A DNA stretch of 64,000 nucleotides from Zestosphaera sp. (GCA_038843015.1 JAWBSH010000003.1:3634-67633), one strand, 5' to 3'. Numbered from the stretch's first letter, positions 9,274 to 52,496 are shown. A program made the numbers and translations. Notes: generated by a model not told the origin, from the sequence alone.

Positions 9274-9540
9274 TTGTTTAGTTTTGGTTTTTCTGGTTGT
9301 TTGGGTTATTTCCGCGGGTTTCAGGAATCGACATATTAAGGTATATAAATAACTGAGTGTTTTAGTGACTGGGAGCCGATGAGCTGATGAGTCGTTGGCG
9401 AGGGACGAGACTCTGTAAACCGCTCTTCACCGATGGCTCCGGGAAGCACAGCAACCTCCTAGAGCCGTAAGTGGGGGAAAAGGAGATAACCAGGTGGGGG
9501 TGAACCCCTACTCAGAAAAACCAAAACAACTAAAACAACC
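9274..9540 (+). other. GC-enriched structured intergenic element (candidate ncRNA or repeat-family member)
   Basis: A perfect 15-bp complement pairs 9281-9295 (GTTTTGGTTTTTCTG) with 9513-9527. A nested 10-bp stem pairs 9304-9313 with 9482-9491 (one G-U). There is a GGGGG-UGAA-CCCCU hairpin at 9496-9509. The core 9361-9510 is about 57% G+C by hand count. Confidence 0.3.
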
Positions 9541-9673
9541 AAAAAACCTAGCTAACGGACACGGGCAACCACTAGATACCAACAGATGCGAAAGCTTGTG
9601 AGGCAGCTACCTGCCTAGAAAACAATAACGTTTATAAAGTTATCTTAAGAAATCACATGAGGGATACATAGTT

Positions 9674-30457: not shown

Positions 30458-31462
30458 TTGAAGAGGGTGGTAGCTTCTGCGCCAGGCAAGGTCACGCTCT
30501 TCGGCGAGCACGCCGTTGTCTACGGGTATCCAGCCATAGTAGCCTCTATAGATAAGCGGATCTATGTCAGTGCAGAGTTACGTGAAGATGACAAGATCAG
30601 AATAAACGCTCAGGACTTAAGGACTTCAGGTGTGATAGTATCTATAAGTAACGGCGAAATTCAAATAACGACTGATTACGGGAAAACTCTCTCAGCCATA
30701 GGATACCTAAACAGATCAATTGAGTTAACTTCTGAGTACTTAGGTGTTAGGAAGGGGGTAAGCCTAGAAGTAAGGTCTGAGATGCCTGTAGGTGCTGGAC
30801 TAGGAACTTCGGCTGCGGTGTCAGTAGCTACGATAGCCGCTTACAGTACTTGCTTAGGTTATGAGTTAAGCAAGGATGAGATAGCGAAACTTGGATGGGA
30901 AGTCGAGAAGAGCGTACAAGGCATTGCGTCACCCATGGATACCTCGATAGCTACGTTTGGGGGAGTCCTCAAGATATGGTTTGAGGGAAGTACTGTATAT
31001 AGGGTCCCGCTAAAAGTGAGTAACGAATTACCTCTAGTCGTGGCCTACGTAGAAAGAGAAAAAAGCACTAAAGATATGGTTATGTTGGTAAGGAATTTGA
31101 GAGAGAAGCATCCCGACCTGATTAATGGTATACTAGAGCACATAGGCAAGACAACACTAGAAGCGGAGAAAGCGTTGGCTGAAGGCAACCTGCAAGAAGT
31201 AGGTACCTTGATGAACATAAATCACGGTCTCTTAGAAGCTCTAGGAGTCTCCTCAAGAAGGCTCAATGAAGTAGTATATACTGCTAGAGTAGCCGGTGCT
31301 CTAGGATCTAAACTGACAGGCGGTGGTGGTGGAGGAGCTTCAATAGCTTTGACACTCCCAGACAACATAAACGTATTGACTAACGTACTAAAACTAGTCA
31401 CTCCACACGTCTTCAAAACCAGCATACAGTATGAAGGGGTTAGAGTGACTGTTTCTCAGTAG
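30458..31462 (+). CDS. mvk: Mevalonate kinase
   Basis: APGKVTLFGEHAVVYG, GHMP motif PVGAGLGTSAA and C-terminal KLTGGGGGG. Confidence 0.85.
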   Translation: MKRVVASAPGKVTLFGEHAVVYGYPAIVASIDKRIYVSAELREDDKIRINAQDLRTSGVIVSISNGEIQITTDYGKTLSAIGYLNRSIELTSEYLGVRKGVSLEVRSEMPVGAGLGTSAAVSVATIAAYSTCLGYELSKDEIAKLGWEVEKSVQGIASPMDTSIATFGGVLKIWFEGSTVYRVPLKVSNELPLVVAYVEREKSTKDMVMLVRNLREKHPDLINGILEHIGKTTLEAEKALAEGNLQEVGTLMNINHGLLEALGVSSRRLNEVVYTARVAGALGSKLTGGGGGGASIALTLPDNINVLTNVLKLVTPHVFKTSIQYEGVRVTVSQ

Positions 31463-31470
31463 GTGGCTAT

Positions 31471-31551
31471 TCATAGGCTTTCTTGCTTTTTATGTTTGGC
31501 CTCCTAGCCATCTACTTCTCAACGGTCTCTTCAGAGCCCCTCACCGCAGAG
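31471..31551 (+). repeat. ~81-nt C/T-rich noncoding module, copy 1 (homolog of 42473-42553)
   Basis: Hand alignment to 42473-42553 gives roughly 70-75% identity (TCATAgGCTTTC...GCCTCCtAgCCATC..CTCTCAACG.TC...CCTCACcGCAGA). Confidence 0.75.
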
Positions 31552-34864: not shown

Positions 34865-35398
34865 CTAATCTAGTGTGAGGCCAGTCTTCAAAGCTTTAAT
34901 ATTTATCTCATGTAGGTTCTCAGAAATAATTTCTTTTAACGCTTTCTCTACATGCTCAACTTTCTGCACTCCTGTTTTAGCTATTAGATGTCCTAGAGCC
35001 ACTATATTAGCCACTCTAGAAGTTCCTACGTTTTTCTCAGCTATCTCGTTATATGGTTTTAAGAAAACTTTTTGAGTTTTGTAGGGGTGTTCCTCACCGA
35101 ATGAAGAGTTAATGAATACGTAGGCATTCTCTTTCAAAATTTCTGAATATTTCGTTAGGTTGTAGGGGTACATGAAGAGTGCTATGTCAGCATTTAATAC
35201 TCTCACATAATCTATTTCTTCAGGGTTGTCAGATATTACTAGGTCTACGCGTGACTCCCCTCCTCTAGTTTCGGAAGCGTATGCTTCCACACTAGTTACG
35301 TATAGACCAGCATATTTGGATGCTGCAACTCCTATCACGCGACCAAGTAATAGAATTCCCTGACCTCCTCTACCAACGATGAGCATCTCTACTTTCAT
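34865..35398 (-). CDS. 2-oxoacid:ferredoxin oxidoreductase, gamma subunit
   Basis: IVGRGGQGILLLGRVIG motif. Last gene of a delta-alpha-beta-gamma operon. Confidence 0.8.
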   Translation of the reverse strand: MKVEMLIVGRGGQGILLLGRVIGVAASKYAGLYVTSVEAYASETRGGESRVDLVISDNPEEIDYVRVLNADIALFMYPYNLTKYSEILKENAYVFINSSFGEEHPYKTQKVFLKPYNEIAEKNVGTSRVANIVALGHLIAKTGVQKVEHVEKALKEIISENLHEINIKALKTGLTLD

Positions 35399-36231
35399 TT
35401 CGATATCCCCTTAACCCTGTCTAAATAACTTGGATTATCACGAATTAAATACTCTCCTACAACTAAGCCTTTCTCCCAATCAGGGTCTGACTCATCAACG
35501 CTGGGTGATTGCTTAACAACTATCTTACTCTTTAGAGAGTTATATAGAGTGAGGGGGTCTCTTATACCTATGTGTCTACCGAACACTTCAGGACATGTTG
35601 AAAGTATTTCTATAAACCTAAAGCCTCTCATACCTAGAGCTTTATACACGTACTGCTCTACTAGTATGGGATGCGTAACTGAAGCCCTAGCTACGTAGTT
35701 AGCGTTAAGAGAGGAGACTACTCTGATTACATTTAAAGGTGGTTCAGGGTTCCCGTGGGGGGTCGTGGTAGTGTATAGACCGAGCGGTGTTGTAGGAGCT
35801 ACTTGACCTCCAGTCATTGCATAAACAAAGTTAGTTATCATTACGACTATCAAGTCCATGTTTCTCTTAGCGGCATGGAGTAAGTGATTACCTCCTATAC
35901 CGGCTATGTCGCCGTCGCCCCCGATAACTATCACTTCTAGTTCGGGCTTTGCTAGCTTAGCGCCCGTGGCAAAAGCTATGGCTCTACCGTGTAGGGTGTG
36001 CGCAGCGTCAAAATTGACGTAGAAGGAAGTTCTTGCGGAGCAACCGATGCCTGTGACGAAGACTACGTTCTCTTTTTTAAGAGTACCCTCTTTAATTCTC
36101 TTATCTATTGCTCTCATCACGCCTCCTAAAGCTATTCCAATCCCGCATCCGGGACACCATATATGCGGTAGTCTCGTAGTCCTTAAGTACCGGTCCAGTG
36201 GGTGGGAGTTCTCTACGTCACTCACAACCAC
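35395..36231 (-). CDS. 2-oxoacid:ferredoxin oxidoreductase, beta (TPP-binding) subunit
   Basis: WCPGCG, GIGCS and the TPP motif GGDGDIAGIGGNH. Confidence 0.85.
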   Translation of the reverse strand: MVVSDVENSHPLDRYLRTTRLPHIWCPGCGIGIALGGVMRAIDKRIKEGTLKKENVVFVTGIGCSARTSFYVNFDAAHTLHGRAIAFATGAKLAKPELEVIVIGGDGDIAGIGGNHLLHAAKRNMDLIVVMITNFVYAMTGGQVAPTTPLGLYTTTTPHGNPEPPLNVIRVVSSLNANYVARASVTHPILVEQYVYKALGMRGFRFIEILSTCPEVFGRHIGIRDPLTLYNSLKSKIVVKQSPSVDESDPDWEKGLVVGEYLIRDNPSYLDRVKGISK

Positions 36232-37385
36232 TTCTTAACACCCTCTACAATATCTTTTGGCTCAGGTATTTCTAAATCTAACAACGATAGAGGAATGACC
36301 TTATTATCTTCAGCTACTCTCTCGACGTCATATAATAACTTACCCGTATTATTCTCTACAACAAATACTTTCTCAGCCTTGTCACAGTACTTCTTAAGAG
36401 TTTCAAGTTTAAGAGGCCATAAAGTCTTGAGTCTAAGTAAGCCAGCCTTGATGCCTGACTTCCTAAGGATCCTAACAGCTGCTAATGCTGATCTGGCTGT
36501 AGACCCAAATGAAACTAAGAGGTATTTATAGTCGTCGCTATAATAAGCTTCTATCTCAAATATTGAGTCAACCTTATTTAAAATCTTGTTGGTAATCCTG
36601 TTGATGAGACTACGATATGTTGCTTTATCTTGCCTGTAAAAACCTCTCTCATCATGTACTAATGACTCAACTAATACGCTATAACCTTCGCCAAAAGTCG
36701 CCATAGGCGGTACTAAGTCATCGTCTGGCTTGTAAGGTAAGTATGTGTCTGGCGGAACACTAGGCTTTTTCCTGTTGATTATCTCTATTTCATCAGGCTC
36801 TGAAATGAGTACAGACTCCCATAAATGCGCGATTACAGCGTCTGAGAGCAATATTACTGGAGTTCTCAGAGACTCAGCTATGTTGAACGCTTTTATAGTT
36901 AGGTCATAAGCCTCCTGTGCAGACCATGGCGCGAGAACCGGAATCACGTAATCTCCGTGAGCGCCGTATCTCACTTGCATGACGTCACTCTGAGAAGTCT
37001 TTGTAGGGACCCCCGTAGAGGGTCCCGCTCTCATGATGTCCGCAATGACTACAGGCGTCTCAGTTATTACGGCGAGACCCAGCGCCTCAAGCATGAGTGA
37101 GAATCCAGGACCTGACGTAGCTGTCATAGACTTAACTCCGGCCCATGATGCGCCTATTGCGGCATTTATTGATGCGATCTCATCTTCAAACTGCATAGTT
37201 ACTCCCCCAATTCTAGACAGCTTCTCAGCCAGGTACTCCATAATCTCGGAAGCAGGTGTTATTGGATAACCAGCGTAAAATCTCATGCCAGCAGTTATAG
37301 CGCCTTCAGCTATAGCTATATTACCTGAAATAAAGGATTTTTTCATTTCCTGAGAACCTCCACAAAAACTGCGAAGTCGGGACAA
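36222..37385 (-). CDS. 2-oxoacid:ferredoxin oxidoreductase, alpha subunit
   Basis: GNIAIAEGAI..AGYPITPASEI start. 387 aa. Confidence 0.85.
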   Translation of the reverse strand: MSRLRSFCGGSQEMKKSFISGNIAIAEGAITAGMRFYAGYPITPASEIMEYLAEKLSRIGGVTMQFEDEIASINAAIGASWAGVKSMTATSGPGFSLMLEALGLAVITETPVVIADIMRAGPSTGVPTKTSQSDVMQVRYGAHGDYVIPVLAPWSAQEAYDLTIKAFNIAESLRTPVILLSDAVIAHLWESVLISEPDEIEIINRKKPSVPPDTYLPYKPDDDLVPPMATFGEGYSVLVESLVHDERGFYRQDKATYRSLINRITNKILNKVDSIFEIEAYYSDDYKYLLVSFGSTARSALAAVRILRKSGIKAGLLRLKTLWPLKLETLKKYCDKAEKVFVVENNTGKLLYDVERVAEDNKVIPLSLLDLEIPEPKDIVEGVKKWL

Positions 37386-37615
37386 CTATATTCGCAGAGT
37401 CTGCAACCAATACATTTCTCGATATTTGCTGGGAGAGGATATCTGAAACCATACTCATTATATTTGCTACCTCTCACTAAGACTTTAGTAGGGCAAACAC
37501 CTATACATATACCGCATTCCTTACACCTACTCGTTACTATACTGACACGAAATCGCGCATTAGAAGCACTCACTAATTTCGTGGTGGTTGAGGCATACGT
37601 AGGTAATCTCATCAC
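37343..37615 (-). CDS. 2-oxoacid:ferredoxin oxidoreductase, delta subunit (2x[4Fe-4S] ferredoxin)
   Basis: CKECGICIGVCP and CIGCRLCEYSCP. Confidence 0.75.
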   Translation of the reverse strand: MMRLPTYASTTTKLVSASNARFRVSIVTSRCKECGICIGVCPTKVLVRGSKYNEYGFRYPLPANIEKCIGCRLCEYSCPDFAVFVEVLRK

Positions 37616-37969
37616 CCTATAATACTTTAATTAGAATTAAAAAAGATTCTGTTAACACCTAAACTGGTTTAAAGTTCATAGGTAATATTTAAACACCTCT
37701 CATCAAGTCTCAGGAGGATAGTATAGTTGATGAATTCAATTAACTAGGAGAATATATCAACAACATACCTGACGTATGGGGTGAGAGACTTAAACAGAAG
37801 CACCCAACGTATTATCAGTAATTGATGATATATCTCGAGTCCAGTACTACGCAGGATAGGATTAACGCGCCCAAGATCTGGCGCGAGACTAAATAATCAA
37901 GGAGTAGGCTGTTTTTATGTTTTTGTGGTGGTCTAAACTAATTCATAAGCTATGGAATGCCTGGTTAAA

Positions 37970-38193
37970 GGGGTTTGGGTTTCATGTTGTTTGTTATTTA
38001 TCCTTGGCTTCACAGACCTCGAGACGACCTCGACTCACAGCCCCTTACTGAGTTCATTGCTGTGGGGGACCCCACATCCTGGCGTTGAATGTCCTGCCCG
38101 CCCAAGTCTTCACTACTTACTCACATTGTAGGCAGGCTCAACCCACAATAAAGTATCAACTCTTGCAAGCCTTCAAGAAACCCGAAACAGCTA
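37970..38193 (+). repeat. 224-bp inverted repeat, copy A
   Basis: Identical (224/224 by hand alignment) to the reverse complement of 42556-42779. It is noncoding. Its termini are complementary (GTTTGGGTTTC...GAAACCCGAAAC). Confidence 0.97.
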
Positions 38194-38218
38194 CACGAGG
38201 CTTCAAACAACCAAGTTT

Positions 38219-38935
38219 TTAGAGTACCTTAGCCAGCTTAAGAAGATGTGATGGAGGAAGTAAGATCAGGAAGCCTTGGAGTTTTGGCGTATTAAATACT
38301 TCATAAACCTTTCTGCAATCGCATACGCTATCATGACCAGATAAGAAATCCTTAAGAAACTCCTCGAACATGTTAGGCGATTTTATATACATGTAACTAG
38401 CTATTAAGAGGACTAGATACAAGTCCCAACCCATGTGCGGAGGTTCTGCCTCAGATAGTGCCTGTTCCGCGTCTATAACGTAAATTAAGTCGTTAGTGCC
38501 TACCAGAAAATTAGTTAGTTTGACGTCTCCTAAAGCCCACCCTTCTCTATGGATCTCTCCTAAAACTCTACCTAAGTTATTTGCATCAATGTCTATATCT
38601 AGCATCCTGCCCTCCACGTACTCACGCAATATTTTATGGTTCTCTTTATCAACTTCAACTATCTTAGGTGTCTTAAAGAATCTCCATTCCTTACTGAAGA
38701 AAGCAAGTTCTCTCTCCAGCCTCTCGGCAGGGTCGTACGTGAAGGGGTAAACAAAACTTAAGAAAGTGCTTAGAGGAAACCACTTGAATGACGACTTCTC
38801 TCCTGTGAAGCTTTTGAGCACGTACTTCACACCAGACCTCTCAATAATCTCAGACTGTGAAACCATCTTATCTAGCAAAGCAATCAGTCCTAACCTATTC
38901 ACCTCACTCAACCTAACATAGTAATTTATTACCAC
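38219..38935 (-). CDS. Small atypical protein kinase-like protein (Bud32/RIO/Kdo-kinase-like)
   Basis: Catalytic-loop-like GDVKLTNFLV and IYVIDAEQA (DFG-equivalent). 238 aa. Confidence 0.5.
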   Translation of the reverse strand: MVINYYVRLSEVNRLGLIALLDKMVSQSEIIERSGVKYVLKSFTGEKSSFKWFPLSTFLSFVYPFTYDPAERLERELAFFSKEWRFFKTPKIVEVDKENHKILREYVEGRMLDIDIDANNLGRVLGEIHREGWALGDVKLTNFLVGTNDLIYVIDAEQALSEAEPPHMGWDLYLVLLIASYMYIKSPNMFEEFLKDFLSGHDSVCDCRKVYEVFNTPKLQGFLILLPPSHLLKLAKVL

Positions 38936-38954
38936 GTAATTAAGTTTCCTTAGG

Positions 38955-39686
38955 GTGAGTGCAGTGGCATACTACCAAAGTAAGAAACAACTAGTTTTCT
39001 CGCTCGTATACTCTCAAGTACTTATCCTCAGTCTAGCCATAATAAACGTGTTCTACCCTCAATACTATCAGTACACCTTCATAGTGTTCTTCATAGTAGC
39101 GATACTCTTCACTAGCTGGAGTGTAAGAAAGTCGAGAATAGGTAGCGGTATATCACCGAGCGAGGTTAAGACTGGCAGACTACTCTTCAAAGCATCAAGA
39201 AATGACGTATTAGAACTTCAAGGCAAGGACACAGAACTAGTTTCTGAGCTGAAGCCTATGCTTAAAGTCTCGCTACTCAATCTAGCGATATTCCCAGTAT
39301 TTATGATATGGTACTGGTGGTATTTCGACTTCATCAGAACACTAGCTATAGAAGCAACCGAACATAGGTTTTTAGCATATCTGATAGGCTATGAAGTGCC
39401 TTATGGCCTCGTTCAAATCATGAATCTAGCTGGGAGGAGAGCTGTCAAATCTTTCGTGCAAGTCGTCTCAGAATATGAGGTCTACGATAAGGGGATCGTG
39501 GGGGCCGGAATCACTTTGAAATTCCCTCTAAAAACTGACCAATATAGAGTAGAGTACAACACGAAAAGAATGTACGTAGACCTGATTCAGACTTCCAGTA
39601 GCAAAACATCTGTTAAGCTTAGATTCTACACGAAAAATCCTGAGAGACTTTACGAAGTATTAAGGAGGTACGCCTTAACTACTTAA
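38955..39686 (+). CDS. Hypothetical membrane protein
   Basis: Two N-terminal and further central hydrophobic helices. I recognised no family. Confidence 0.35.
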   Translation: MSAVAYYQSKKQLVFSLVYSQVLILSLAIINVFYPQYYQYTFIVFFIVAILFTSWSVRKSRIGSGISPSEVKTGRLLFKASRNDVLELQGKDTELVSELKPMLKVSLLNLAIFPVFMIWYWWYFDFIRTLAIEATEHRFLAYLIGYEVPYGLVQIMNLAGRRAVKSFVQVVSEYEVYDKGIVGAGITLKFPLKTDQYRVEYNTKRMYVDLIQTSSSKTSVKLRFYTKNPERLYEVLRRYALTT

Positions 39687-39772
39687 GAAAACTAGCTGAG
39701 AACAGAACAACAATAAGATATGAGTTACAAGCCCATAAACGACTAGCAATTCTCAGCAAGTTCCCTTAAATA

Positions 39773-40099
39773 TTATTTCATAGCATTACTACTACGTGCG
39801 TTATCTAGAGAAGATAGTAGGGCTAGACCCTTACTACTTAGTCTTACTCGCGTTTCTTTCTCTTTATTCTCCACTACAATTAGCCCTACTTGAGCCAATA
39901 GCGTTAGGTCATTCTCTAAGTCTTTAGAGTAGGGGCCGAAAGAATACTTCACGAAGTCGTAACCGAACCTAACTCCTCTCTCGCTCTGCAATTTATAGAC
40001 TATCTTATGAAGCTCCAGCAAGCCACTCAAGTTCTCGTTTTCTTTAATTATCCTTAACAACCACAAAAGGGGTAACTTACTTTCTAACATTTTACTCAC
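39773..40099 (-). CDS. Hypothetical small protein (possible winged-helix)
   Basis: 108 aa. LHKIVYKLQ...YSFGPYSKDLENDL pattern. The family is uncertain. Confidence 0.3.
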   Translation of the reverse strand: MSKMLESKLPLLWLLRIIKENENLSGLLELHKIVYKLQSERGVRFGYDFVKYSFGPYSKDLENDLTLLAQVGLIVVENKEKETRVRLSSKGLALLSSLDNARSSNAMK

Positions 40100-40181
40100 A
40101 TAACAACTCTGTACTTCATAACCATATAAAAGACTTTAGCCACACTCACGACTCCTAAGTTTCTCAAAATTCTCGCGCGTC

Positions 40182-40739
40182 TCAAGCTTCAAGAGATTCT
40201 AAGCTATTATTGTATGCCTCTTCATTCACCCATCTCAGCAAAGCCATCAAAACAGATAGTCGAGTCAAGTGAGTCCTGTTTAATAATCCCTTAGAGAGTA
40301 AGTGGATAACTCCCTCACGTTCACCAATATCTTCGATGTTGTAAGTTTTAGCAACAGCTTCTTCTAATTCTCTAACCTCATTCCTCACAATTAACCTCAT
40401 TAACTTATCTGGTATTTGAAATCCGGGTGAGAAGCCTATCGCTTGACGCCCTCTTAAGTCTCTGACTATAGTTACCTGCACGTCCACATAAGTATTAGGC
40501 ATTACTTCTATTATTCCCGCCTCAACACCTACGTAGAAGTCACAGTCCTTGCGCGATAATGAAGTATGAACTCTCCTTAAAGCTCCTTCAAGAATCTCGT
40601 TAAGACCTACAGGTTGAGGTCTTAAGTCTCTAGACTCGACACTAACTAACTCTATGTCTCCAATATTGAATGCTTCTCTGAAGGCCTGTTTTATGCCTTC
40701 TAGCTTCGAAGGATTCTTAGTACCGGCGCAGACCCTCAT
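40182..40739 (-). CDS. Inosine/xanthosine triphosphatase-like NTPase (DUF84/YjjX family)
   Basis: AGTKNPSKLEGIKQAF start and VGVEAGI motif. 185 aa. Confidence 0.65.
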   Translation of the reverse strand: MRVCAGTKNPSKLEGIKQAFREAFNIGDIELVSVESRDLRPQPVGLNEILEGALRRVHTSLSRKDCDFYVGVEAGIIEVMPNTYVDVQVTIVRDLRGRQAIGFSPGFQIPDKLMRLIVRNEVRELEEAVAKTYNIEDIGEREGVIHLLSKGLLNRTHLTRLSVLMALLRWVNEEAYNNSLESLEA

Positions 40740-40811
40740 GAAAGACTCACCTAAAATACTTTGAACTAAACTCTTATAACTGAGGACATACGTTAAGTAA
40801 GTTTAAGAGTC

Positions 40812-41567
40812 TTACATTATCTCTCTAGACTCTCTCCTCTCAGCGCCTTTACCCATAAGCTTACTCACTTGCGAGAGCGTTGCTTTAATTCTCGACTCAA
40901 CTACCTCCGCGTGACTTAACAAGTCCTCAGTAGATACTCTGATTTTTAGGTAGTTCTTAAGCAAGTCTACGACGGACTTAACAGCCCTGAAGTCAACTTC
41001 ATTAAACTCTACTATAGTTGACCAAGTCTCGCCTAACATGACAGCACTCCTAATGCCATAATAGGAAGCCCACCCAACTATTATGCCGTTAACTCCTGTT
41101 ATGACTCCTTCCTCAAGAATATTACCGCCTAAACTACTTAACTCAGCTAACAAGCCCTCATCATTTCCTGCTATGAAAACCCTCCTTGAGTCGCTGTATT
41201 CAGGAACCACGTAAGCAGCAGTAGCGATGAGTGAGGCGGGCTTCCCCCTACTCATTATGTGGTTTAACAACTCAACACATATCTCATGCTGTCCGTCCGG
41301 GTTTTGAGGCTGTGTCTCTCCAGTAAACACTAGAAAATTATTGACTTCATATAAGCGACCCGTAAAAAGCGTTGAAATTCCCCTCCTATTAACGACTAGT
41401 TGCGAAGGAAACGTTGTTGAGTAGAGCTCAGCAACTAAGTCGCCCCCTATCTTCTCTAGTATGTAGTTTACTGAGGCATAACCGACTCTGCCCATTCCCG
41501 GCAAGCCAATGAGTAAGTGCTTATCCTTACTCTCATACTCTTTTAATACTTTCACCTTAGTTACCAT
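40812..41567 (-). CDS. PAC2-family (proteasome assembly chaperone-like) protein
   Basis: LLIGLPGMGRVGYASVNYI motif. 251 aa. Confidence 0.6.
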   Translation of the reverse strand: MVTKVKVLKEYESKDKHLLIGLPGMGRVGYASVNYILEKIGGDLVAELYSTTFPSQLVVNRRGISTLFTGRLYEVNNFLVFTGETQPQNPDGQHEICVELLNHIMSRGKPASLIATAAYVVPEYSDSRRVFIAGNDEGLLAELSSLGGNILEEGVITGVNGIIVGWASYYGIRSAVMLGETWSTIVEFNEVDFRAVKSVVDLLKNYLKIRVSTEDLLSHAEVVESRIKATLSQVSKLMGKGAERRESREIM

Positions 41568-41600
41568 CTTATTACCTCTATTTCAAGTTGTTTTGCTAAG

Positions 41601-42344
41601 TTATAAAGGATACTCTCGTAGCGACACGCACTCACCTCTCCTGCTCTCTACGTACACCCTCTGAGACGAAATTATCTCCCTAGTAGCACTCTCAGGATTC
41701 GTTGAGAGAGTTATTGCCCTCCCAACTACTTCCGCGTCAGCGCCAGAACAGATGCCCTCACCAGGTTTCGCACCCATCCTCAATATACCTGAAGCTAGAA
41801 TCACGTGCCTCTTTCCAAAGCTAGACCTAATCTCCCTAATCATGAAGCCCTTACTAGCAGGTATTATTAGTCCTGAAGCGTCAGTCAAATTCACTACATT
41901 CTTAATTAAATGGTAAGACTGGTCAATAACTTCCCCAGCTCCCTCATGAGGTAGAGACACCTGAAGGAATAGTTCCATCCCCAACTCCTTAACTCGCGAA
42001 GAGAGAGGTTCTAGGGCCCCCTTATACCCAACAAAAGCGTGAGACACAACACCCTGAAAGCCCGCCACAGAAAGCTCATCTACAACTGGTAACATGACGT
42101 CGGCGATATCAGCTAGCTTCAGGTCCGCAATGAAGTAGTACTTATCTCTACGACTGCTAATCAAGTTACTTATGTTTTTGAGGCCGTACCTAAGCATATA
42201 AGGCAAGCCAATCTTAACGCCGGACACATAATCATAGATTCTGTCAAGTAACGCATCTAATCTAACTATGTCTGGAGGCGGGTAATTTACTGCGAGCACT
42301 ATAGTTCTCTCACTATCTCTCAAAATCCTGTGTGCGGACAACAC
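41601..42344 (-). CDS. pyrF: Orotidine 5'-phosphate decarboxylase-like protein
   Basis: IVLAVNYP, VKIGLPY and FIADLKLADI (DxKxxDI) motifs. Confidence 0.55.
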   Translation of the reverse strand: MLSAHRILRDSERTIVLAVNYPPPDIVRLDALLDRIYDYVSGVKIGLPYMLRYGLKNISNLISSRRDKYYFIADLKLADIADVMLPVVDELSVAGFQGVVSHAFVGYKGALEPLSSRVKELGMELFLQVSLPHEGAGEVIDQSYHLIKNVVNLTDASGLIIPASKGFMIREIRSSFGKRHVILASGILRMGAKPGEGICSGADAEVVGRAITLSTNPESATREIISSQRVYVESRRGECVSLREYPL

Positions 42345-42472
42345 TATACACCAACATATTTTCTAACCACACTTAAAAACACTTCCTGACAACTGACCCC
42401 CTTCCAGTCCCGGGAGACAAGAGTCCCCAAAATAAGGGTTTGAGGCCACATCGTTTCTCAGCAGATGACTGC

Positions 42473-42553
42473 TCATAAGCTTTCACGTTTCTTCGTATCC
42501 AGCCTCCCAACCATCCGCCTCTCAACGATCCCCCAGAACTCCTCACTGCAGAA
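42473..42553 (+). repeat. ~81-nt C/T-rich noncoding module, copy 2, abutting repeat copy B
   Basis: Homologous to 31471-31551 (hand alignment). It ends 2 nt before repeat copy B. Confidence 0.75.
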
Positions 42554-42555
42554 TA

Positions 42556-42779
42556 TAGCTGTTTCGGGTTTCTTGAAGGCTTGCAAGAGTTGATACTTTA
42601 TTGTGGGTTGAGCCTGCCTACAATGTGAGTAAGTAGTGAAGACTTGGGCGGGCAGGACATTCAACGCCAGGATGTGGGGTCCCCCACAGCAATGAACTCA
42701 GTAAGGGGCTGTGAGTCGAGGTCGTCTCGAGGTCTGTGAAGCCAAGGATAAATAACAAACAACATGAAACCCAAACCCC
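42556..42779 (-). repeat. 224-bp inverted repeat, copy B
   Basis: Exact reverse complement of 37970-38193. Confidence 0.97.
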
Positions 42780-42849: not shown

Positions 42850-43779
42850 TTGCTTGGTGGAAGACATTGCTTAATTATCTTAACAATTGGTTTGTTGTTG
42901 TTTGGAGGCCTAGCTTTAAAAGCTTCTGACGGTCTAAGATATACGTACATTCTCTATCCTGACGGACACGCTCATGTCAAGGTGGTGTGTAACGTGTCTG
43001 GGAAAGAGTTTCTAGAACTTAAACTTGAGAGAGGATACGTGAACGAGACAATTATGGCTTTCTCCGATAGTGGGATGCCCCTGCCTTACATATTAAGTCC
43101 TGACGGGAAGATAGTTGTTGATGTCAGTAACCTGAGTAGCGTGACTATAGAGTATGAGGCAGTAGTAGGGAGCGTATTCACTGAAGTTCAGGTTAACGTA
43201 CTTATAAATCCGTTAGGTCCTGCCGACGTAATACTACCACCTAATTCTGCTCTCTTATACTTTAGTGGCTCACCACAAATAACTACAGTTAGCGACTCAA
43301 CAGGTAAGCAGTTTTATTTAGTTCTTAGTTATGATAGCGCAGGCACGTATGAAGTTAGTTTCCTACTACTCCCTCGGACAGAGCTCCCCACCGAAACACT
43401 CAGCTCTCAAACAACTCCCCCCTCTAGCGAGGCCGGAGCATTCGATACTCTTATTTTCATTTTGGTAGGTGTGGCGGTAACGGCTTTGCTAGGATACTTT
43501 ATTATAAGGAGAAGACTTGAGAAAACGTCTGAAATAGAGCCTCTACTAGAGCATGGTTTTGACGAACGTGACAAGGCGATTCTTAAAACGTTGAGTAGTG
43601 GCGAGGCTACTCTATCAGACTTGAGCAAGGCAGTAAGACTAAACAAGTCTGTTGTTTGGAGGAGGTTAGAGAGGCTTAGAGAATTGGGATATGTTGAGAA
43701 AGGCTATTCTAGAGGCAAGTCTATATATAGATTGACACAAAAAGGATCGAAAATCCTTAAAGACCTAGACAATCAGTAG
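42850..43779 (+). CDS. Membrane-anchored winged-helix (MarR/ArsR-like) regulator with extracytoplasmic N-terminal domain
   Basis: N-terminal signal/anchor, a ~170-aa domain, an S/T/P linker and the TM segment FILVGVAVTALLGYFII. The C-terminal part is ILKTLSSGEATLSDLSKAVRLNKSVVWRRLERLRELGYV. Confidence 0.55.
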   Translation: MLGGRHCLIILTIGLLLFGGLALKASDGLRYTYILYPDGHAHVKVVCNVSGKEFLELKLERGYVNETIMAFSDSGMPLPYILSPDGKIVVDVSNLSSVTIEYEAVVGSVFTEVQVNVLINPLGPADVILPPNSALLYFSGSPQITTVSDSTGKQFYLVLSYDSAGTYEVSFLLLPRTELPTETLSSQTTPPSSEAGAFDTLIFILVGVAVTALLGYFIIRRRLEKTSEIEPLLEHGFDERDKAILKTLSSGEATLSDLSKAVRLNKSVVWRRLERLRELGYVEKGYSRGKSIYRLTQKGSKILKDLDNQ

Positions 43780-52385: not shown

Positions 52386-52496
52386 GCGGGGGTGCCCGAG
52401 CCAGGTCAAAGGGGGCGGGCTCAAGTCCTCCGGCAGCAAGAGCGGGAGACCCGCTGGCGTAGGCCTGCGTGGGTTCGAATCCCACCCCCCGCACCA
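52386..52496 (+). tRNA. tRNA-Leu (anticodon CAA) with a ~23-nt intron at the canonical 37/38 position; CCA encoded
   Basis: Acceptor GCGGGGG/CCCCCGC. Class II D-arm and long variable arm. Anticodon stem GCGGG/CCCGC with loop CU-CAA-G[intron]A. T-arm GTGGGTTCGAATCCCAC. 3' ACCA. Confidence 0.85.

Follow-up and report, generated by a model that had tools for sequence, protein, structure and literature searches.

Inversions between opposed copies of IS elements or MITEs are known in prokaryotic chromosomes, for example in Sulfolobus and in many bacteria. Flip-flop isomerisation is known from the inverted repeat of plastid genomes and from the inversion isomers of Halobacterium pNRC100, with repeats that are kilobases long and carry genes. 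REP/BIME, ERIC, Correia, BOX and RUP are families of bacterial intergenic repeats which are co-transcribed and fold. Natural populations also contain, in either orientation, a further class of invertible segments, the invertons of the PhaseFinder/PhaVa type, characterized by short inverted repeats, a nearby site-specific recombinase and the switching of a promoter or coding sequence; in archaea invertons are barely explored (bioRxiv 10.1101/2023.03.11.532203). The locus described here shares with IS- or MITE-bounded inversions the identical inverted copies of a dispersed element, both orientations, breakpoints inside the copies, ordinary housekeeping genes in the inverted part and the apparent lack of a dedicated invertase, but its element is only 224 bp long, codes for nothing, has no visible target-site duplication and no known transposase partner. 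Long perfect inverted repeats, recombination isomers and apparent gene conversion of the arms are common to this locus and to plastid or pNRC100 flip-flop, of which near-identical repeats, breakpoints inside them, two isomers and concerted arms were all found; in contrast, arms of 224 bp here enclose a unique region of 4.4 kb, in the chromosome of a hyperthermophilic archaeon. An inverted-repeat-bounded segment present in both orientations is what it shares with invertons, whereas short repeats and a nearby recombinase are absent, no switched promoter was found and the arms are complete copies of a dispersed element.

The analysed stretch of DNA (64 kb, hereafter the window) comes from a hot-spring archaeon, a Zestosphaera-like member of the Desulfurococcaceae. 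Its relevant features are the following, the strand of an arm being the sense of the covariance model (TAGCTG...CCCC):

34865..37615, minus strand: outward-facing 2-oxoacid:ferredoxin oxidoreductase operon of four genes (delta, alpha, beta, gamma)
37970..38193, minus strand: left arm, element copy 1 (covariance-model match of 263 bits on the minus strand)
38061..38076, no strand: internal palindrome TGTGGGG-GA-CCCCACA, mirror copy at 42673-42688, stems invariant in ten family members
38194..42555, no strand: invertible segment of 4,362 bp, in the window in orientation B with pyrF beside the HTH gene
38219..38935, minus strand: Bud32/RIO-like small kinase, below threshold (NCBIfam arch_bud32 6e-12, under the curated cut-off; PDB Bud32 chains 4e-5)
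38955..39686, plus strand: DUF2208 membrane protein (Pfam 6e-46)
39773..40099, minus strand: small protein of 108 aa with no family assigned, not a recombinase
40182..40739, minus strand: DUF84 (NTPase_I-T), inosine/xanthosine triphosphatase-like (Pfam 4e-42)
40812..41567, minus strand: PAC2 family protein (Pfam)
41601..42344, minus strand: OMP decarboxylase, pyrF-like (Pfam)
42453..42552, no strand: copy of element 2, an intergenic repeat of about 100 bp unrelated to the arm, directly abutting the right arm's inner end
42556..42779, plus strand: right arm, element copy 2, identical to copy 1 (covariance-model match of 263 bits on the plus strand)
42850..43779, plus strand: outward-facing membrane-anchored winged-helix (HTH) regulator (Pfam/NCBIfam)

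What the initial annotation had described at this locus was recovered throughout. The arms are complementary at 224 of 224 positions with 4362 nt between them, and their identity ends abruptly at all four boundaries, the outer flanks having nothing in common but a short TTAAC(C) immediately ahead of the repeat. A 34-nt arm probe, with up to three mismatches allowed, matched the two arm sites only (chance expectation 0), and at a minimum length of 40 nt the arm pair is the sole sizeable repeat of the window, where one other pair (43 nt, 72%) was found. The arm is noncoding as claimed: each of the six frames either contains stops or is not the same from one family member to the next, gene calling in ten assemblies placed no gene within it, and no conserved ORF crossing an arm was found. 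Its G+C content is about 50%, while that of neighboring spacers is 32-40%. Each arm had been said to lie the same way relative to the outward gene beyond it, and the model sense indeed points outward at both, from the left arm to the oxidoreductase operon and from the right arm to the membrane HTH gene. The complementary termini pair in the predicted fold and the palindrome is helix 7 of a 12-sequence alignment, with none of its seven pairs varying and with a variable loop (arm SNP positions 99 and 100; AAA or AAAC in paralogs); both features are kept in distant family members. A paralog of element 2 is present in the window at 31451-31550.

The six-gene content of the segment agreed with Pfam and NCBIfam, with the kinase below threshold and without a match in the Pfam search, while the 108-aa protein gave no Pfam match, only a weak NCBIfam match below the cut-off and no PDB relatives. 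The kinase gene is co-oriented with the model sense of the left arm, and its stop codon lies 25 bp from that arm's inner end. In accordance with the reported lack of a transposase or integrase, no recombinase domain was detected in the ten proteins scanned (six inner and four flanking; Pfam, NCBIfam, PDB). The oxidoreductase operon starts 355 bp from the left arm and the HTH gene 71 bp from the right arm. The pyrF promoter GTTTTTAAGT, about 35 bp upstream of the gene, lies within the segment, moves with it and is kept in the repeat-less species, and the HTH gene's own TATA region TTAAATATTTA sits between the right arm and the gene and is kept in arm-less species. No switched promoter or coding sequence was found, as neither pyrF nor the HTH gene is separated from its promoter; the inversion would alter only the gene downstream of the kinase, which is the HTH gene in orientation A and the oxidoreductase operon in B.

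Related loci were retrieved with PAC2 as the anchor, and the window was compared with ten conspecific assemblies that have an identical PAC2 protein and are less than 0.45% divergent. All ten have the repeats. Orientation A, with pyrF beside the oxidoreductase operon, was read from seven of these assemblies (L001, L003, L005, L007, L008, L009, L010) and orientation B, with pyrF beside the HTH/hydrogenase side, from three (L002, L004, L006) and from the window, so that the two states are shown between assemblies; GCA_038861255.1 is an example of B and GCA_038867265.1 one of A. The junctions of outer and inner flanks lie exactly at the repeat ends in both orientations, and between the window (B) and L007 (A) three compared stretches of 7 kb, 7 kb and 4.4 kb contain 1, 0 and 1 SNPs, respectively. 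Both strain clades contain both orientations, and the 11 genomes, which diverge by at most 0.43%, require at least four orientation changes on a neighbour-joining tree, a parsimony count of inversions that recombination between strains can inflate; at least four changes among genomes less than 0.45% divergent would make switching unusually frequent in comparison with IS or MITE inversions. Since near-identical wild strains have either orientation, the 4.4-kb block appears to flip repeatedly in nature, as might be expected from the earlier remark that such repeats are substrates for inversion.

Synteny in related genomes, proposed as a check, gave one fixed order in siblings and either order in conspecifics. 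In the sibling species L013-L016 (PAC2 about 90% identical) order A is present throughout, and in L012 it extends from the operon to DUF84, after which synteny is lost. Judged from these comparisons, arrangement B of the window is the derived (inverted) one. Neither an inverted repeat nor an arm homolog was found at this locus in L012-L016, and the spacer between the kinase and HTH genes of the sibling species is shorter by about 224 bp. The initial annotation had listed recent duplication, ongoing gene conversion and selection on an RNA or DNA element as possible reasons for the complete identity, and each of them gained support. The repeat missing in sibling species indicates a recent duplication. 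The arms of one genome differ by 0-5 SNPs, and the clade-typical bases at arm positions 51, 115 and 133 are mostly common to both, which indicates concerted evolution and in turn gene conversion; a MAG consensus from a strain mixture can be chimeric, which may blur these arm SNP patterns too. The third reason is favored by the unit belonging to a conserved noncoding family.

By its sequence, the arm is a member of a low-copy dispersed noncoding family of Zestosphaera-like Desulfurococcaceae/Sulfolobales. Diverged copies of 210-299 bp are found at other intergenic sites of this species and of three other species-level lineages. Those of L045/L051-L054 come from the same assemblies as L009 and L001 and therefore mark a third element site in this species, whose three known sites hold two identical copies and one 78% identical; further copies are those of L044/L055/L056, L012 and L037. 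Conservation of the family starts and ends at the repeat boundaries within 0-2 nt. Length is modular and depends on whether a hairpin module is present (224 versus 280-299 bp), indels between members are not multiples of three and no frame is kept, and the central part, 20-50 times more variable among strains than its flanks, has patches in common between loci and between species. At the tRNA-editing locus of L047-L050 the orthologous site lacks the element, and the L012 copy is present where the orthologous spacer of the window is empty. The end sequences GTTT-GGGTTTC and GAAACCCGAAAC, located 3-5 nt inside the termini, match each other as complements along about 11-12 nt if one indel is allowed, and in distant members this complementarity is kept or both sides are changed together, a pattern that the closing helix of an RNA gives as well.

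The element resembles MITEs in being shorter than about 500 bp without coding capacity (210-299 bp) and in its presence or absence at orthologous sites, but a target-site duplication was seen neither at the arms, with either pairing of outer and inner flanks, nor at the copies of L044, L045, L012 and L037. No relatives were found in viral contigs, phages and plasmids of the collections searched, nor was a cognate transposase found for the element. The loci of other family members do not break assemblies, which argues against a burst of near-identical copies. The high-copy MITE with target-site duplications and a fixed orientation of the segment, considered at the outset as the ordinary alternative, does not fit: duplications are not visible, near-identical copies are few and the orientation is not fixed. 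With REP/BIME, ERIC, Correia, BOX and RUP the family shares a short noncoding unit, complementary ends, internal hairpins, modular length, intergenic location, co-orientation with genes and presence or absence at orthologous sites; it differs in having no sequence relationship to them, an archaeal host, few near-identical copies and a variable central part with patches shared across loci and species. It is a new and probably mobile family, absent from Rfam and from the phage and plasmid collections searched.

The best reading of the locus, with a probability of about 0.68, is in our view that the block has been inverted repeatedly by homologous recombination, acting on two copies of this new, probably mobile element that were duplicated recently. 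The two arms would derive as sisters from one discrete noncoding element, about 224 bp long, which would have come, in opposite orientation and in the lineage to this species, into both spacers bounding the pyrF-PAC2-DUF84-small ORF-DUF2208-kinase block. The unit seems to have been copied precisely from end to end, which speaks for an element-defined, transposition-like step and not for a random segmental duplication; we infer this copying of a mobile unit only from the coincidence of boundaries. Two perfect 224-bp inverted copies lying 4.4 kb apart would then be a substrate for general homologous recombination, in which reciprocal exchange between the arms would invert the block and non-reciprocal exchange (gene conversion) would keep the arms identical. 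The enzyme system would be that of general recombination (RadA-type) and not a dedicated invertase.

The two orientations could also arise if only one were true and short-read assemblers had oriented the 4.4-kb block arbitrarily, because a perfect 224-bp repeat exceeds the k-mer and read-overlap length. The arms show no differences in 4 of the 11 genomes (the window, L004, L007 and L010), where only read pairs could orient the block, the orientations are scattered over the strain tree as coin-tossing would give, and many assemblies do break at the arms: PAC2 is found only on 2-5 kb contigs in 28 of the 60 collection blocks, which is what frequent assembly breaks at both arms would produce, and the contig of L046 ends inside the arm, at arm position 54. 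We nevertheless regard such an artefact as unlikely, for unresolved repeats normally make assemblers break contigs and not guess, and both states are also seen in genomes whose arms have 3-5 differences at intervals of less than 125 nt, namely B in L006 (five differences on a contig named k141_..., of which the innermost, at position 115, is 110 bases away from the inner boundary) and A in L001, L003 and L005 (3-4 differences). At such spacing the flank can be connected to the interior by 150-nt reads that overlap or by 141-mers, and overlapping short reads or k-mers can thus resolve the orientation of these four genomes. The repeat-less sibling species independently show orientation A, and B occurs in four separate assemblies. 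Programmed phase variation, with a recombinase encoded elsewhere that flips the block at a site in the arm such as the palindrome as a regulated switch, would suit the very frequent switching relative to point divergence and the 7+7-nt palindrome invariant across ten family members, and archaeal invertons are barely explored (bioRxiv 10.1101/2023.03.11.532203). Such a switch is very unlikely, however, with no recombinase in the segment or the adjacent genes and no promoter or coding sequence switched; family members that stand singly at other loci, without a partner copy, have the palindrome as well, so that it did not evolve for this inversion. Moreover, the inverted repeats of invertons are far shorter than arms of 224 bp. 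It could finally be supposed that the inversion itself made the duplication, staggered breaks at one breakpoint copying the sequence between the nicks to both ends; this would place inverted duplicates exactly at the breakpoints of the inversion, and the species showing the inversion is indeed the only one with the repeat. At both ends the duplicate matches, to within 0-2 nt, the limits of family members at unrelated loci, and random nicks would not hit both ends of the unit, which makes this origin highly improbable.

The nature of the arm is a separate question. What the arms represent may primarily be a functional structured RNA in two copies, whether as a small RNA gene or as a cis-acting leader or 3'UTR module for the outward genes, with identity kept by selection and conversion and with inversion as a side effect, and this is compatible with homologous recombination as the mechanism. 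Across the family-level divergence blocks of complete conservation, among them the 23-nt end and the hairpin, are interspersed with variable regions and with an optional hairpin module of about 45 nt, and the consensus folds better in the model sense than on the opposite strand (-51 versus -38 kcal/mol, with 98.1% versus 93.6% of cells paired). Six pairs with double changes were found among 6 sequences, and after two diverged members had been added 14 pairs were changed on both sides among 12 sequences (three in the terminal helix), in an alignment that was fitted to the model. The higher G+C content of the arm relative to the spacers, and a model sense co-oriented with an adjacent gene at every site examined, point in the same direction, and covariation modestly favors a transcript in the sense TAGCTG...CCCC, outward from the segment. 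On the other hand, Rfam 15 gave no match at the gathering score in the window and only noise at E<=10 for three family members, the independent sequences are few, and no promoter is conserved inside the unit. The fold of the 224-nt arm is no better than shuffled (z-scores of -0.5 and -0.3), and among its relatives L044 reaches -0.9 and -1.9 and only L051 attains -3.3 and -2.7. The element is missing at the orthologous sites of sibling species, which means that its position is not stable. We regard a functional RNA in the arms as possible but somewhat doubtful.

To return to inversion by homologous recombination between the two copies, it would be essentially neutral for the organism because every gene keeps its own promoter. 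The mechanism by which the block would be turned is an ordinary one, and it is the family of elements, probably mobile in these archaea, that is new.

The inverted repeat described in the initial annotation was recovered by a repeat finder and by direct reading of both copies, as two stretches of 224 nt that are 100% complementary and lie 4362 nt apart. Identity stops at all four arm borders just as abruptly as had been stated, TTAAC(C) directly before the arm being the sole sequence common to the outer flanks. Only two matches to a 34-nt arm probe are present in the window with up to 3 mismatches allowed (chance expectation 0), both in the arms, and the one other repeat pair detected in these 64 kb at a 40-nt minimum is weak, 43 nt at 72%. 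The gene content read earlier from the sequence also emerged from domain searches, and the locus is arranged as follows.

Left of the repeat: four-gene 2-oxoacid:ferredoxin oxidoreductase operon, transcribed away from the repeat
37970-38193 (-): left arm
38194-42555: segment with genes for a Bud32-like kinase (below threshold), DUF2208, a small unassigned protein, a DUF84 NTPase, PAC2 and OMP decarboxylase (pyrF)
42556-42779 (+): right arm
Right of the repeat: membrane-anchored winged-helix (HTH) gene reading away, then a hydrogenase cluster

No transposase or integrase had been noticed inside the segment, and indeed none of the ten proteins scanned (six in the segment and four flanking) has a recombinase domain; no tRNA or tmRNA lies near the repeat. 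Elsewhere in the window, a probable archaeal tRNA with an intron lies at 52386-52493 (+), where Rfam gave a tRNA match (108 nt, 41.8 bits) and ARAGORN made no call.

A search for proteins identical to this PAC2 gave ten loci of 20.8 kb from other assemblies, nine NCBI MAGs of one series and one ENA MEGAHIT assembly, all of which possess two arms. With PAC2 placed on the + strand, orientation was scored by the neighbour preceding pyrF: this is the oxidoreductase operon in seven loci (orientation A: L001, L003, L005, L007, L008, L009 and L010) and the HTH gene with the hydrogenase cluster in L002, L004 and L006 as well as in the window (orientation B). Either inner end of the segment joins each outer flank precisely at the arm boundaries, so the earlier proposal that the repeats are a substrate for inversion is borne out by both orientations among conspecific assemblies. 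The 11 sequences represent one species (divergence of at most 0.43% over 18.8 kb) and fall into two clades, each containing A and B. Between the window (B) and L007 (A) there is one substitution in one 7-kb flank, none in the other and one in the 4.4-kb interior. A neighbour-joining tree of the 11 genomes requires no fewer than four changes of orientation, a count that recombination between strains could inflate. The event is a repeat-mediated inversion of a housekeeping block, which is an already known kind of event, and with both states present in public assemblies the locus can be tested directly with existing reads.

Misassembly at the arms could in principle have produced one of the two states. 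The arms are identical in four genomes (the window, L004, L007 and L010), and there the block can therefore be oriented by read pairs only. Many assemblies also break at the arms: 28 of the 60 collection blocks have PAC2 on nothing longer than a 2-5 kb contig, and L046, a JGI contig from this species, terminates at arm position 54. However, both states are also found where the arms are distinguishable. In L006 (B), whose contig name is MEGAHIT-style (k141_...), the arms differ at positions 1, 51, 54, 99 and 115, the innermost difference lying 110 bases from the inner boundary, while L001, L003 and L005 (A) have three to four arm differences spaced by less than 125 nt, so that flank could be chained to interior in these four with overlapping 150-nt reads or 141-mers. 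Sibling species without any repeat likewise show orientation A, and we consider an artefact unlikely. A flip-flop locus in turn explains the recurrent assembly break that leaves PAC2 alone on a 2-5 kb contig in many assemblies. Within the one-genome-per-species collection (L011-L043) no encoded PAC2 exceeds 92% identity to that of the window, hence the species itself did not surface there; this is consistent either with loss of the 4.4-kb block from the representative MAG through breaks at both arms or with absence of the species.

Evolution of the arms is concerted. Variable positions among the 22 arms are 1, 51, 54, 99, 100, 115, 133, 170 and 222; clade-typical bases at 51, 115 and 133 are mostly common to both arms of one genome, position 1 tracks the outer flank, and this pattern is what would be expected of gene conversion between arms. 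Exchange points could not be placed from the arm SNPs, the haplotypes being too mosaic. A PAC2 profile fetched loci from sibling species, among them 'Ca. Zestomicrobium tamdykulense' and MAGs of Zestosphaera/Desulfurococcaceae, whose PAC2 is about 90% identical. Their synteny is order A throughout in L013-L016 and, in L012, from the oxidoreductase operon to DUF84, beyond which synteny is lost; none of the five has an inverted repeat of 30 nt or longer. An arm homolog was not found at the siblings' locus: although a global alignment was suggestive to the eye, homology to their spacers was rejected on local alignment scores no higher than those of shuffles and, for the L013 spacer, on the lack of a match in both nhmmer and covariance-model searches. 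The kinase-HTH spacer is about 156-168 bp in siblings against about 380 bp here, a difference that is essentially the arm; that between oxidoreductase and pyrF is 676 bp here and ranges in siblings from 33 unaligned bp (L014, L016) to 0.8-1 kb (L013, L012). As the siblings are repeat-free with order A, this order is ancestral, the inverted pair arose in the lineage of this species, and the window represents the derived state. The roughly 275 bp that separate the left arm from the oxidoreductase promoter region (37696-37969), including a hairpin CGCGCC-N8-GGCGCG at about 37868-37887, are without counterpart in L014 and L016 and have no match elsewhere.

General homologous recombination between the arms would be the simplest mechanism, with the enzymes presumed, because the 224-bp arms match perfectly and evolve in concert, the segment and its immediate neighbours include no recombinase gene, and single copies of the element at other loci retain the palindrome. 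Crossover between arms would invert the block and conversion would homogenise them. The pyrF promoter (GTTTTTAAGT) lies inside the segment and the HTH promoter (TTAAATATTTA) outside the arm; both are also found conserved in repeat-free species, so no promoter or reading frame is switched. Inversion alters context only in what follows the kinase gene and arm, which is HTH in A and the oxidoreductase operon in B. From this arrangement we infer that inversion is neutral or nearly so, and a programmed switch of the block is very unlikely. Archaeal invertons are little studied, with 12 putative cases in 42 genomes (bioRxiv 10.1101/2023.03.11.532203).

The arms belong to a wider family. When the outer 23 nt of the arm were used to scan metagenome contigs, three records matched, L046 at the same locus and copies of about 290 nt (L044) and 280 nt (L045), roughly 70-78% identical and in unrelated housekeeping contexts. 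L045 is 99.4% identical to L051-L054, whose assemblies (GCA_038833525.1, GCA_038897595.1) also supplied L009 and L001, and this species therefore has a third, diverged copy. L044 is from another species of the order Sulfolobales, with the copy at the identical site in two more strains (L055, L056). A covariance model built from six members detected two more, both diverged, which are the last two below.

Third copy in this species: flanked by genes for an ABC-2 transporter and a YbaK-type tRNA-editing protein; absent at the orthologous locus in four relatives
L012 4327-4536: in a sibling species; the window's equivalent spacer is short and empty
L037 16681-16950: in a distant MAG whose PAC2 shares just 44% identity

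In all members conservation opens at GGGG/AGGG...TTTGGGTTTC and closes at ...AAACAG(C/T)T, within 0-2 nt of the arm boundaries, so the duplicated stretch is the element copied end to end. This coincidence argues for an element-defined copying step over random or staggered-break duplication, and a staggered-break origin was rejected. About 25 nt before the L012 member, GCGGTTTGGTTTCAG (L012 4290-4312) resembles the element's opposite terminus GGGGTTTGGGTTTCATG, perhaps as the remnant of a further copy, perhaps by chance. The hairpin pattern TGCTGTGGGGNNCCCCACATCC had no matches in the one-genome-per-species collection or in metagenome contigs, its NN loop being unable to match the 3-4-nt loop of the paralogs, and six-frame translation of three concatenated members, as a route to further copies through spurious ORFs, gave no protein at E<=1.

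As to its nature, the repeat is noncoding as first judged, stops and frameshifts differing between members. A known RNA family was rejected (no Rfam match at gathering score in the window, none at E<=10 for three members), as was a virus or plasmid origin (no blastn match of 37616-38218 to phages and plasmids); three viral-contig pattern scans were all empty. Small size, presence or absence at orthologous sites and complementary ends, which an RNA closing helix would equally produce, are MITE-like traits, whereas block-wise conservation across family-level divergence is not; no target-site duplications flank the arms or the L044, L045, L012 and L037 copies, and since other loci assemble unbroken there was probably no burst of near-identical copies. 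The consensus fold is more stable in the sense TAGCTG...CCCC, outward from the segment, than on the opposite strand (-51 vs -38 kcal/mol; paired cells 98.1% vs 93.6%). Addition of L012 and L037 yielded 14 pairs changed on both sides, three of them in the end-pairing helix, a count biased toward structure because the alignment was fitted to the covariance model. Folding of the arm is not better than that of shuffled sequence (z = -0.5, -0.3); z is -0.9 and -1.9 for L044, and a value as low as -3.3 is seen in L051 only. In model sense the element is co-oriented with a neighbouring gene at every site examined, following a stop codon by 25-82 bp at four sites and preceding a start codon by 59-120 bp at four, the distance to the oxidoreductase operon start being 355 bp; G+C is about 50% in the arm vs 32-40% in adjoining spacers. 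Evidence for RNA structure is thus moderate, and a role at the RNA level is possible at slightly less than even odds. The element likely is or was mobile as a unit, which is compatible with such a role.

Among strains more than 99% identical in flanks, variability in the centre of single-copy members exceeds that of the flanks 20-50-fold, and the ends are invariant: L045 and L051 have 26 differences in 215 bp (L051 4667-4881) vs about 30 in 10.2 kb, and L055 and L044 have 30 in 150 bp (L044 6296-6447; L055/L056 comparison) vs 24 in 5.7 kb. A patch of L055 (CCCACAGCTCACCCTCATTTA...GCTCACAGCTGTGGGGAAA-CCCCACAT) is nearly identical to L051, from another species and locus, which suggests that core patches are exchanged ectopically or between species. 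This family combines signs of RNA structure with unusually fast core turnover. A joint reading, which we regard as improbable, is a new archaeal class of mobile structured RNA module with invariant ends and a hypervariable core that swaps patches among loci and even with co-resident species, the pair being kept as a reversible switch that would re-couple a kinase read-through transcript to the HTH regulator or the oxidoreductase operon.

Two other dispersed elements were met.

Element 2, about 100 bp, intergenic: window 42453-42552 and 31451-31550, L051 5482-5555, L013 4466-4513; copies 72-77% identical
Element 3, about 295 bp, noncoding: L001 14633-14927, also in L002, L005, L008 and L009, between the HTH and hydrogenase small-subunit genes
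Element 3 paralogs: window 9278-9573, L055 1055-1354; 80-81% identical

The element 2 copy at 42453-42552 lies upstream of pyrF and directly against the right arm's inner end; because sibling L013 has a copy in the corresponding position, it appears to predate the 224-bp pair. Element 3 is a strain-level insertion polymorphism, present in five and absent from six assemblies including the window (empty site 43813/43814), with flanking direct ACAGT, complementary ends (TTTTGGTTTTTCTGG / CCAGAAAAACCAAAA) and a 10-bp hairpin; its kinship with the 224-bp family was rejected, the similarity not being significant. These genomes contain short dispersed noncoding elements of at least one family not described before, and the number of such families is probably three.

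To our knowledge, back-and-forth chromosomal inversions are scarcely documented in archaea, and we know of no flip-flop inversion from uncultured hyperthermophilic Desulfurococcaceae, so that this locus offers a compact natural example. If inversion is merely neutral recombination, it is a tidy yet ordinary repeat-mediated rearrangement; what is notable is how often wild populations of this uncultured hyperthermophile show it, and that its arms are members of an undescribed conserved noncoding family.
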